DNA of 64,000 nt from contig OZ245046.1 in NCBI GenBank assembly GCA_965224245.1, positions 160,001 to 224,000 of the forward strand. Reading direction: 5' to 3'. Both the position numbers and the translations under genes were made by a program. This stretch comes from Candidatus Eiseniibacteriota bacterium. Lineage in GTDB: Bacteria; Eisenbacteria; RBG-16-71-46; CAZAMP01. Below, one piece after another: positions 59,476-64,000 of the stretch. The first letter of the stretch is position 1; every line of letters starts with the position of its first letter. Below the pieces are notes generated by a model. It was not told where the DNA came from, did no database searches, and worked only from the letters and a program-made list of their open reading frames with translations.

Positions 59476-61059
59476 ATGATCCGGAATCGTCCAAATGCGG
59501 TGCTCGACCGCTTCGCGCTCACGGTCACCTGTCTGGCGGCCGCGTCGGCCGTCGGGGTGTCCGCCGTCTCGGCGCACGTCATCGACAACTTCGAGCAGGG
59601 AACGTTCGACGTGCTCGCTCCGGCGGGGGCATCGGCGTCGGGCTCGCAGTTCGCGCTCAACCCGTTCAACTGCATCGCCGGCAAGAGAGAGGTGACCGTC
59701 ACCTCGCACAGCGCCTCGCAGCCGGCGAGCGCCGGCCTCAGCCTGTCGCCGCAGGATGACGAGGTCGCCTCGGTCATGCCGGACGAGGGGGGCATCGTCT
59801 CCCTGGTCTACGACATCGGCGCGGACACGGACATCACCGTGGGGGGGACCCGGGATCGCATCCGACTGTCCCTGAGCGTCGCTCCCGACGGCGGCGGCGC
59901 CGACGTCGGTGAGGTCCGGCTGTCGCTCAGCGACGACACCGGGGCGCACCAGTCGGTCTCGCTCCCGTTCGGCGGCCCGGGGAACGTCGACTTCTGGCTC
60001 TCGGACTACCCGAGCGTGAACCTCGTGAACGTCCAGCGCGTGGATGTCGACCTGATCGCGTACCGTGCCGGCGACTACCACGTTCGCGACATCCGTACCG
60101 TCAAGCTGGGAACGCCGCTCGTCTACATCCCGGTGGGATCCACCGAGGTGTCCGGTCCCGGCTATCCCACCGAGCCGCTCCTGTGGGAAGGCATCGCCGA
60201 TCCCGAGGGGGAGACGGCGCCGGGCGGCGCGCTGGCGCTGAAGATCTCGGACGCACAGGTCGATCCGTCGATCCCCTGCGACGACTTCTGCGACGGCGTG
60301 CCCTACGGCCTCTTCACGCTGCCCGCCGAGGTTCCCGGACACTCCGAGGCGTGGGTGCGCTTCGAGGGCGGCTTCAACGACGTGTTCCCCGCCGAGCAGA
60401 CGCTCAGCTTCCAGCTCTCGTTCGAGCCTCCGGCCGATCACACCTACGGAGAGCCGATCTGGAACTCCGTGTGGGTCAACGGCGGGTTCATGGTGGAGAT
60501 GTCGATGGAGCTCTTCGACGGATCCGGAACGTCGCTCGGCATGACGGAGCACCACGTCATGGGCGATCTGATGAACGACCTGTCGCCGGTGCTGTCGGAC
60601 TTCGTCCCGAGCGTCGTCTCCGGGAACGACCTGCATCTGGTGCTCGGTCTGACGCAGGTCACCGGGAGAGTCCGCGGCACGGGCGATTCGACCTCCCGGT
60701 CGTCCGAGGACGCCGGGACGGCCGTCCTGGCCCTGCGCGTCGAGAGCACGGCATCCGCGGAGGTCGTCCTGGACGTGCCCGGCGCGGCGGCCGTCATGCC
60801 GCAGCTCACGGCTCGCCCCACGGTGATGCGGACGCAGACCACATTCGACCTCGCGGGTACGGCGGATGTCGCGCGGAGCCTCGACATCTACGACGTGGCC
60901 GGACGCTCGGTGCGCTCGCTCTCGGTGCCGGCCGGCTCGACGCTGGCCCGGTGGGACGGACGAACCACGGGCGGCATTCGCGTGAGTCCCGGCGTCTACA
61001 TCGCGCGCGTCGCCGGAGCTCGGGGCGGCGCGGGCGCACGGCTCGTGGTCGTTCGTTGA
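59476..61059 (+). CDS. Secreted protein with C-terminal FlgD-Ig/T9SS-like domain
   Basis: GGAGG RBS; signal ending VSA-H; IYDVAGRSVRSL..WDGR..SPGVY..RLVVVR. Confidence 0.82.
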   Translation: MIRNRPNAVLDRFALTVTCLAAASAVGVSAVSAHVIDNFEQGTFDVLAPAGASASGSQFALNPFNCIAGKREVTVTSHSASQPASAGLSLSPQDDEVASVMPDEGGIVSLVYDIGADTDITVGGTRDRIRLSLSVAPDGGGADVGEVRLSLSDDTGAHQSVSLPFGGPGNVDFWLSDYPSVNLVNVQRVDVDLIAYRAGDYHVRDIRTVKLGTPLVYIPVGSTEVSGPGYPTEPLLWEGIADPEGETAPGGALALKISDAQVDPSIPCDDFCDGVPYGLFTLPAEVPGHSEAWVRFEGGFNDVFPAEQTLSFQLSFEPPADHTYGEPIWNSVWVNGGFMVEMSMELFDGSGTSLGMTEHHVMGDLMNDLSPVLSDFVPSVVSGNDLHLVLGLTQVTGRVRGTGDSTSRSSEDAGTAVLALRVESTASAEVVLDVPGAAAVMPQLTARPTVMRTQTTFDLAGTADVARSLDIYDVAGRSVRSLSVPAGSTLARWDGRTTGGIRVSPGVYIARVAGARGGAGARLVVVR

Positions 61060-61072
61060 TATGGAACGACCC

Positions 61073-61078
61073 TGTCAA
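61073..61078 (-). promoter_or_regulatory. Outward-facing -35 hexamer (candidate circle-junction promoter half)
   Basis: TTGACA on the minus strand 16 nt from the inferred IS110 end. Confidence 0.55.
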
Positions 61079-61159
61079 GGGCACTGATTCGTGATCCCAG
61101 GGGGCGGCGGAGGCCGCCCCGTTCTTGTTTTGTACCGGTTTGTTGGAAGAGCTCGAGAC

Positions 61160-61375
61160 ACCGCGGGGTGATGGCGGCTTCGACGACGAGTCACGCTGAT
61201 GTTCGCGGGTTGAGCCGGCGTCCCGGCCAGAGCCGCATGACTGTGATCCGTCGGGAGGTTGCGCCCTCTAGCATCGTGGGTTCGGGAACGACATTCCGTA
61301 CCACATATCGAAGTCGCGCGCTGTCTCCAGATCGTGCCATCGGTCCGACGGTGCCTCGAGCCAGTGGTCATGTTC
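61160..61375 (-). ncRNA. Candidate IS110 bridge/seek RNA
   Basis: Two related modules ATG(T/C)GG-hairpin-AACCC(A/G)CGA at 61274-61306 and 61203-61238; GAUAUG complementary to the element end; limits approximate. Confidence 0.6.
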
Positions 61376-62050
61376 GGTTTGTCCCTACGCTGCGGGCCGG
61401 ACGCTCGGATGGAGCACGGCCCAGAGGTATCCCACCAGTTCACGTGCCATGGCCACGATGGTCTTGGGGTGTGGCTTCCCGCGTATCATCATCCGTTTGT
61501 AGTGAGCATGGAGCCGCTCTTGTGAGCGATTGGCAATGGCAATGACCCAGGCGGGTTGATCCTCTCGTCGACGAGCAAGCGGCCCCGAGATCGACGGACG
61601 ATGACGATGGTGCCAGGCCGCTTCGACCAGAAGCCGGCGAACGTGTCCGTTGCCGGTCTTGGTGACGGGTCCACGATCGGTCCGCTCGCCACTGGAGTGT
61701 TCACTGGGAACCAGCCCGAGGTAGGCCGCCAGGGCCCGTGCGGAGCGGAAGCGACGGAAGTCGTGGAGCTCGGCCACCAGGCTAACCGCGGTCACCGTGT
61801 CGATCCCCCGGAAGCACCGGAGCCAGGACACCGGATCTCGATACGGCTCCTGCTGACCACAGCGCTCCATCTCGCGCTCGAGCTGGGCTCGACGCTCGGT
61901 GAGCTGATCGACGGCGAGGAGGTAGGAGTCGAGCGTGGCTTGAGCGGCCGGATCCTCGAACCGAAGCGTGCGCAGCCACGCCATGTGCCGAGAGCCCCAG
62001 TGAACCACGCCGGGTTTGCCGGAGGGTGTATTCCTTGAGAGGATACCTCC

Positions 62051-63384
<1,334 letters not shown>

Positions 63385-64000
63385 CCAGCTCTCCGGAGAA
63401 CCCGGTACGGTTCACAGTGGTGCTTGCTTCCGCGGAAGATGCACTGACGACGAAGCAGGAACTTGCCCAGCCGATGCCGGGTCCGGCACAGATCCTCCCG
63501 GACGTCCGCCCGACAGCGGCACAGATCGCGGAGCGCCTCGTCCTGCTCGTTCGGCGGATGCACCTCGGTCGAGAGCCCGGCGCGGAACAGCTCCGCCAGC
63601 TTGCGAGCATCCCGACGATCGGTCTTGATCCGGCCTCCCGGACGCCGCGGGATCAGCGACGGGACCACCACTGTGCATGAGATGCCCCACTCGGTCAGCC
63701 GGCGCTGGGTCCCGTAGCCGGTGGGACCAGCCTCGTAACACACCGCCAGATCCCCCGGAGCCTCGCGCTCGAGCCGACGCGCCAGTCGGCGCACCGCCTC
63801 CACCGTGTGCGGCTCCTGCCACTGCAGAACCCGATCCGACCCCGGCACCAGGACGGCCACCTGGACCGTCCGTTTGTGTGTGTCCAGACCGACGAAGGTG
63901 GTATCGTTGGACACGACCGGCTCCTTTCGTATGCGGCTCTGGTGCCGCAAGGCGCTAACCCGCGATCTACCGGGGCTTCGACCCCCGTATGTCGGCTGCT

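Follow-up and report, generated by a model that had tools for sequence, protein, structure and literature searches.

The left end of an IS1111-type element, located on the minus strand in the last 3 kb of the window (the whole 64-kb stretch of DNA that was analysed), may constitute a two-way control cassette, a reading to which we assign a probability of about one in two. In such a cassette, a leader hairpin would hide the ribosome-binding site (RBS) of the recombinase gene, and an antisense RNA would be transcribed outward from a −10-like motif. The comparison of related elements gave indirect but specific support for an outward antisense RNA of the kind represented by Asr9 of ISPpu9 or RNA-OUT of IS10. 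The module under study (63931..63965) reads ATGCGG CTCT GGTGCC GCAA GGCGCT AACCCGCGA on the + strand; both the string and its coordinates were as given in the first-pass annotation when the sequence was re-read. It begins 3 nt past CTCCTTT (63921-63927), the complement of the Shine-Dalgarno (SD) sequence AAAGGAG, and thus adjoins the antisense of the RBS, as had been claimed. The module is the apex of a conserved, predicted left-end hairpin, which base pairs the 5′ arm of the element with the SD and the start codon.

The element was placed in the IS1111 group of the IS110 family, as the group is defined in the accessible text of PMC11208160 and PMC11187229, on the basis of its 12-nt subterminal inverted repeat, the length of its right end and a perfect TTGACA at the tip of that end. 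The left subterminal repeat (TATGGAACGACC) begins at nt 8 of the left end, and its distance of 7 nt from the end agrees with the 7-nt extension rule of IS1111 elements (PMC11187229, accessible text). Profile matches identified both IS110 domains on the minus strand, the DEDD (RuvC-like) N-terminal domain (about 63420-63914; PF01548, E 9.4e-18) and the IS110/IS116/IS902 C-terminal domain (about 61388-61994; PF02371, E 3.1e-22). The recombinase gene starts with GTG (63914..63912), located 6 nt downstream of the SD AAAGGAG (63921..63927), which is kept in relatives, and ends with TAG (61385-61387), all on the minus strand. Its reading is interrupted after about 165 codons by an IS3-family element on the + strand (61995..63420; inverted repeats 61995-62024 and 63391-63420) and resumes at about 61994. 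The window’s copy of the IS1111 element is dead, as its recombinase gene has already been destroyed by this insertion. The IS3 element carries orfA (62051-62371) and orfB (to 63384), both on the + strand, with HTH_Tnp_1 and rve domains; a programmed −1 frameshift is predicted between them, with an ALIL pseudoknot match at L001 130-246 (window 62329-62445). The Rfam cmscan of the second fragment returned only this pseudoknot and chance microRNA matches.

The left end, which serves as the 5′ leader of the recombinase mRNA, spans 132 nt on the minus strand (63915..64000 and on to 64046 past the window edge; L001 1716-1847), compared with about 327 nt for the non-coding right end (61058-61384). 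Within it lie the module, two inserted hairpins (P4 and P3) and the subterminal inverted repeat. The element is present once in the genome, alongside one relative of 38% identity and one decayed left-end fragment (L002 1500-1625; G000:C1:4318877-4318945 and flanks). In this fragment, the module reads ATGCGG CTCT GGCGCC GCCG GGCGCC GACCCGCGA and is joined to a recombinase remnant without most of the N-terminal part.

The leaders were compared among 25 relatives from the same phylum (206 genomes searched, 23 with a match) and at 80 loci from other phyla, the best 80 of 544 confirmed relatives. A common architecture was found: helix P1 forms between the SD and start codon on one side and the bases immediately inward of the subterminal repeat on the other. 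In the window’s element, the near arm of P1 (GGAGCCGGUCGU in sense; 63913..63924) reaches from the end of the SD across the spacer into the start codon, and the far arm is the 5′ arm of the element (ACGACCGGCUC), located just outside the window (64023-64033; L001 1824-1834). P1 is followed by a short second helix, P1b (UCGUA/UACGA, CUUUG/CAAAG or UUGCG/CGCAA), and then by the module, with the consensus G-Y-R-G, GUUA, a variable hairpin, CAGAG and C-Y-R-C. Two additional hairpins are inserted next to the module in the window’s clade. RNA-library contigs from two studies (X5 and X16) showed 0 differences over the module but skipped 46 nt (L001 1768-1815; window 63967-64014), and thus probably derive from a very close relative without the two inserted hairpins.

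The arms of P1 covary throughout the family (CCGGC/GCCGG, CCGAC/GTCGG, GCTGGACC/GGTCCAGC and CTAGCTCC/GGAGCTAG). RNAalifold, run on the 25 clade leaders, predicted P1 together with the module, with double changes at 7 of 22 pairs. The conservation of the module in related elements, which the first-pass annotation had proposed to look for, was extensive: a strict pattern recovered it at 77 of 109 loci and a loose one at 87 of 104 unique loci from many phyla, among the best-listed relatives, and it was also present in ISSso6 of Shigella. Base pairs were counted in modules anchored on the loops alone, that is, at 58 unique loci with a single candidate anchor; 42 of 100 loci were left out of this count (17 without a 3′ anchor and 25 with 0, 2 or 3 candidate 5′ anchors). 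The outer stem was Watson-Crick paired in 205 of 232 cells from the 58 modules, with alternation at position 2 (U-A 24, C-G 26) and position 3 (G-C 43, A-U 7). The inner stem was paired in 0.79 of cells, as opposed to 0.46 ± 0.02 (maximum 0.53) over 500 shuffles. Compensatory changes maintain the hairpin, which, on this comparative evidence, is a real, conserved structure. Rfam 15 (cmscan, E <= 1) gave no match on the left end.

The same data bear on the suggestion that the left end acts as DNA, with the subterminal repeat present a third time as the arm over the RBS and the palindrome serving as a protein-binding or cruciform site for synapsis. The near arm of P1 does repeat GGTCGT of the right-end subterminal repeat. 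However, stems that covary, loops that remain fixed and the tolerance of G.U or A.C intermediates form the pattern of an RNA structure, and the length of the inner hairpin is free to vary from 9 to about 50 nt, which makes a role of the left end as a DNA element very improbable. The earlier claim of a functional RNA rather than a DNA inverted repeat was supported in that the module is a conserved, covarying structure and no chance inverted repeat.

The module had been named the third copy of an RNA module because its flanks match those of module 2 in the right end. The predicted bridge RNA (seekRNA) of the element is located in this long right end and consists of modules 1 and 2, both on the minus strand. 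Module 2 (61203..61238) reads AUGCGG-CUCUGG-CCGG-GACG-CCGG-CUCAA-CCCGCGA in sense and is followed by a segment copying the right-end terminus. Module 1 (61275..61312) reads AUGUGG, a hairpin and CCCACGA in sense, followed by CUAGAG, which copies the left-end junction. Two hairpins in sense, each closed by AUGYGG...CCCRCGA, recurred in the right ends of wider relatives and of at least 20 relatives belonging to the same phylum. The segment after module 1 matched the left junction of the same locus (CUAGAC, UCAGAC, UUAGAC or CCUAGAA), and the segment after module 2 matched the right end (AUAUCAG, AUACUAG, AUAGCAG or AUACCAG); this guide-like covariation (sense flanks 61239-61274 and 61190-61202; L006-L032) was judged by eye. 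Modules 1 and 2 would thus act as expected for the right-end bridge RNA or seekRNA of IS1111 elements. The resemblance to the IS1111-group systems described in the accessible text of PMC11208160 and PMC11187229 extends to the subterminal repeats, the short left and long right ends and the −35 sequence at the right tip, as well as to the right-end modules with segments copying the element ends. The right-end terminus (61058..61078, minus strand) reads, in sense, TTGACA (−35-like; + strand 61073-61078) and then GGTCGTTCCATA (+ strand 61060-61071). This perfect TTGACA, about 15 nt short of the right-end tip, was kept in nearly all relatives read that retain this tip; its position suits a junction promoter in a circular intermediate, and the left end has just a weak −10 candidate.

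It was confirmed that the flanks resemble, in inverted orientation, those of module 2 in the opposite end of the element. The composite pattern TCGCGGGTT-N10-24-CAGAGCCGCAT matched exactly twice in the 64-kb window, at 61203-61238 (+) and 63931-63965 (−), and had 0 matches in 100 dinucleotide-preserving shuffles; the likeness is therefore real and not due to chance. A general repeat search of the window missed this pair, as the match is broken up by the differing inner stems (GCCGG/CCGGC in module 2, GGTGCC/GGCGCT in the left-end module). On the + strand, the left-end module has an outer stem GCGG/CCGC (63933-63936 with 63960-63963), an internal loop CUC/AC, and an inner stem (63940-63946 with 63951-63957) closed by the loop GCAA (63947-63950). 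In the minimum-energy fold of this strand, the inner stem comprises 7 bp, including two G.U, under the GCAA cap. The assertion that the inner stem differs in sequence and still pairs beneath a GNRA loop thus held on the + strand and failed in sense, where the two G.U turn into A.C and C.A mismatches and the canonical module is absent from the minimum-energy fold of the minus strand. Within its clade, the window’s copy is alone in having one of these wobbles, a change of GGCGC to GGCAC in sense, which, as this copy is dead, may represent decay.

The alignment score of the left-end module with module 2 was 24-35 at most clade loci, as opposed to 15 ± 2 for shuffled sequences. This likeness, together with the + strand build of the module (a closing stem, a CUCUG/UAAC internal loop and a stem-loop, like module 2), favours a + strand RNA with a third bridge-type module bound by the recombinase, either as a decoy or feedback device or as an additional guide loop. 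In several lineages (L033, L034, L037, L045, L056 and L095), module 2 is extended by a stem-loop with the same CUCUG/UAAC internal loop, which equals the + strand reading of the left-end internal loop. The extended module 2 is often GNRA- or UUCG-capped; a simple 7-nt loop (UAACCAA-like) is found in most other relatives. However, among the 66 loci scored, nearly all relatives of 53% identity or less had inverted-likeness scores at the shuffle level and thus no mirrored right-end copy, and the left-end module was kept in relatives whose module 2 is without a matching extension. The likeness to module 2 is limited to the window’s clade, and the left-end module is far more widespread; the name of a third copy is therefore not primarily appropriate and was abandoned. 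In contrast to the right-end RNA of IS1111 elements, the module lies in the left end, is inverted and is without guide-like flanks: segments copying the element ends or the target were sought beside it and none were found, whereas the flanks of modules 1 and 2 copy and covary. The proposal of an additional guide loop was thus not supported. According to the accessible text of PMC11187229, the RNAs co-purifying with the transposase of ISEc11 (IS1111 group) map to the 3′ non-coding region only, in an experiment in which transcription was driven in sense alone. The proposal of recombinase binding gained no support, and we regard a bound third module with decoy, feedback or guide function as quite unlikely. 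A conserved outward RNA, with an apex of the same stem, CUCUG-UAAC and stem build as the extended arm of the right-end bridge RNA, might also be bound by the recombinase as a guide-less third module, acting as a titrating decoy or as a partner in the synaptic complex; this is unlikely, and if it were true, bridge recombination in the IS1111 group would involve two RNAs from opposite strands.

The flanks of the leader module are also exactly complementary to those of module 2 over 9 + 11 nt around two different hairpins, and close relatives show the same arrangement. Sense RNA-RNA pairing of the leader with module 2, present in the bridge RNA or in the 3′ UTR, would couple recombinase translation to the supply of bridge RNA. 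Nevertheless, differences in the flanks of L016, L026 and L037 were without complementary changes in the partner, and the outer stem varies in wider relatives (GCGG, GUGG or GUAG) independently of module 2. Changes in the left end and in module 2 occur separately, and this pairing was rejected because compensatory change was absent; we consider it the least probable of the explanations weighed here.

A promoter-like signal for an outward RNA was found inside the recombinase gene. The extended −10-like element TGG-TATCGT (63899..63907, + strand) lies within codons 3-5 and is predicted to act as an outward promoter. Among the relatives, TAnnnT occurred on the + strand of CDS nt 3-20 at 88 of 104 unique loci, counts that overstate the support since related sequences are not independent; after clustering at 70% identity, most members carried the motif in 31 of the 43 clusters. 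It ranked first of the 64 X1X2nnnX3 motifs (the next best occurred at 52 loci), as opposed to 30 of 104 for TAnnnT on the sense strand and to a background of 0.0027 per position over the remainder of the gene. The full TGnTAnnnT was present at 43 of 104 loci (background 0.00012), with part of TGn being imposed by conserved Thr/Ile-Thr codons. The TA of the motif occurred in all three codon phases (at a codon boundary at 65 loci, within NTA codons at 17 loci and at codon position 1 at 3 loci) and in about 40 codon contexts among the 104 unique loci. In the window’s GC-rich clade, an NNT|A codon boundary coincided with the motif at 26 of 26 loci, formed by 8 different codons and amino acids, and T-ending codons made up 919 of 9154 codons (10.0%) in the genes of this clade. 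The motif and the module tended to occur together (counts 76/11/9/8, odds ratio 6.1). These observations suggest conservation, at the nucleotide level, of a minimal −35-less promoter signal reading outward. In many GC-rich bacteria, TAnnnT alone suffices as a promoter.

The earlier proposal of an outward antisense RNA was thus found plausible with regard to the conserved TGnTAnnnT or TAnnnT inside the first codons, but gained nothing from conventional promoter prediction. A two-hexamer sigma-70 scan of L001 1400-2000 and window 60950-61450 returned 0 promoters on either strand, and no −35 was found for the outward promoter; the nearest TTGTGN is 22 nt away, in the conserved CTTGTG of His-Lys codons. 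Four RNA libraries contained contigs of 210-250 nt from relatives, unstranded and without transcript ends, over the left end and the gene start, and the RNA libraries of matching runs shared just 2-3 of 49 query words.

A null result in the promoter scan would also be expected if the left end acted in the sense direction only, with an RBS-hiding hairpin in every recombinase mRNA (fold-back inhibition) and no antisense RNA. The module would then be just an apex, perhaps a protein or ribosome-standby site, and TAnnnT would be conserved for another cause. In the accessible text of PMC11187229, the authors report the junction promoter of ISEc11 as the sole promoter and saw no internal one, in line with such a leader. 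The 5′ arm of the leader pairs with the SD and start codon in the covarying P1, and the sense fold reaches −67.3 kcal/mol (z −4.98). Since the helices are symmetric, only wobbles, loops and signals can tell the strand, and the wobble counts do not agree on it. Wobbles in the inner stem lean to sense family-wide (G.U 29-31 versus A.C 15-18), and a U.G within the internal loop is conserved in sense in 24 of 25 clade leaders. The minimum energy of the module was lower in sense at 36 of 62 loci and lower in antisense at 26 of 62. In contrast, the P1 duplex was more stable in antisense at 66 of 106 loci (in sense at 40 of 106), with G.U making up 163 of 2009 pairs in antisense versus 49 of 1866 in sense. 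In the sense C.A mismatches of P1, however, the A lies mostly on the SD/start side, and the P1 excess could therefore reflect translation signals (ATG starts and A-rich spacers) instead of antisense selection.

Other features are left unexplained by a leader that acts in sense only, namely the top-ranked, phase-independent TAnnnT on the opposite strand, the 26 of 26 NNT|A boundaries against a background of 10%, and the bias of GNRA loops towards the + strand. Apical GNRA loops (GCAA, GCGA, GAAA or GUAA) were present in 12 of 61 unique modules on the + strand versus 2 of 61 in sense. The canonical module of the clade also folds better on the + strand (−17.7 versus −14.1 kcal/mol in sense for the window’s copy). 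The + strand fold (−64.6 kcal/mol, z −5.64) was matched in stability by 0 of 200 shuffles and retained the canonical module in the minimum-energy fold. We therefore regard the sense-only leader as a serious possibility that nevertheless has the odds against it.

According to the two-way reading, the recombinase mRNA leader would fold into one long hairpin, in which the SD and start codon would be paired to the segment beside the subterminal repeat, holding translation low. RNA polymerase would start outward on the + strand from the −35-less extended −10 TGG-TATCGT in codons 3-5; with the usual spacing, the antisense start would fall at about 63913-63916, that is, about the start codon and the base of the mirror hairpin. 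The product would be a roughly 135-195 nt RNA, an exact complement of the leader beginning with the anti-start and anti-SD, and would fold into the mirror hairpin with a GCAA-capped module. At the window’s locus, transcription would stop at the host terminator, displaced to L001 1882-1905, giving roughly 195 nt. We infer that such an RNA would pair with the leaders of resident or incoming copies. The sign of the regulation is a guess; as the RNA would cover the SD and start codon, it would most likely block translation, like RNA-OUT of IS10, and by analogy with Asr9 it may instead have an activating role.

Comparable control is known from other elements. In IS10, the antisense RNA-OUT, a stable stem-loop, is made from a promoter that faces outward at the start of the transposase gene, and its sequence complements the RBS and start codon of RNA-IN. 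IS10 also shows fold-back inhibition, and IS200 combines the antisense RNA art200 with a leader stem-loop; in these systems a leader hairpin hides the RBS. The left end described here resembles IS10 and IS200 in its RBS-hiding leader hairpin and in the predicted outward antisense RNA over the RBS and start codon. It differs in that the transposase families are unrelated, the whole left end is one hairpin with a sequence-conserved internal loop, and the promoter is just a −10-like motif. Closer to the present element, ISPpu9 and ISPpu10 of the IS110 family were shown experimentally to produce antisense sRNAs from just upstream of their tnp genes (PMC8450116 and PMC12288879, accessible text). 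ISPpu9 of Pseudomonas putida has a structured leader including the RBS, its translation is raised by Asr9, a stable antisense sRNA of about 180 nt, and a further sRNA lies downstream (PMC8450116); the antisense sRNA of ISPpu10, Asr10, has a strong promoter (PMC12288879). These elements and the window’s element share the family, an RBS within the leader structure and an outward, leader-complementary sRNA on the opposite strand from immediately upstream of tnp, which is here predicted. In ISPpu9 and ISPpu10, however, the bridge RNA lies in a long transcript upstream of tnp (a 244-nt leader in ISPpu9), according to the accessible text, whereas the window’s element has a 132-nt leader and its guide RNA in the right end. 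Asr9 activates translation, whereas the RNA predicted here covers the SD and start, and repression is expected. The Pseudomonas RNAs were demonstrated by Northern blot, S1 mapping and reporters, whereas the RNA of the window is predicted, and the likeness was drawn from published descriptions.

The view that such a structure is undescribed therefore needed to be narrowed: an antisense sRNA and an RBS-hiding leader are in print for ISPpu9, and it is the form in the IS1111 group that appears to be new. The literature searched yielded no description of the left-end motif in IS1111-type elements; the supplements of PMC11208160 and PMC11187229 may cover left ends. The kind of control, a leader hairpin with a cis-antisense RNA, is thus known; what appears new is its occurrence in the IS1111 group, together with the form it takes there and the conserved apex. 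Recombinases of IS110/IS1111 elements now serve as programmable “bridge” editors, and natural limits on recombinase output are known for ISPpu9 alone. The hairpin and a probable RNA-OUT-like antisense RNA would together be a general expression brake of a large IS1111-type group, and heterologous constructs retaining the native left end would carry a built-in inhibitor if the two-way reading is true. For genome annotation, the hairpin offers a non-coding feature that can be recognised and that was absent from the Rfam 15 matches for this left end.

The insertion site of the element was also characterised. Clade copies (61040-61062; right-end flanks L006-L032) sit at the very stop codon of a host gene in convergent orientation, and the tail of the host ORF gave only sub-threshold matches to FlgD and to a T9SS sorting domain (TIGR04183, 16.9 bits versus a cut-off of 23). 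A terminator-like hairpin with a T-run is present within the right end (61101..61132, + strand), in the same orientation as the incoming host gene, and the host’s own terminator now lies just beyond the left end (L001 1882-1905). The element would therefore supply a replacement terminator and shield itself from read-in. The host gene products at the insertion sites end in ...LVVVR, LLVVN, ITVVR or VLQR, and CUCGUCGUCGAAG, a segment conserved in the right-end RNA, is similar to the coding strand at the end of the host gene; the element thus seems to target a conserved C-terminal coding motif.
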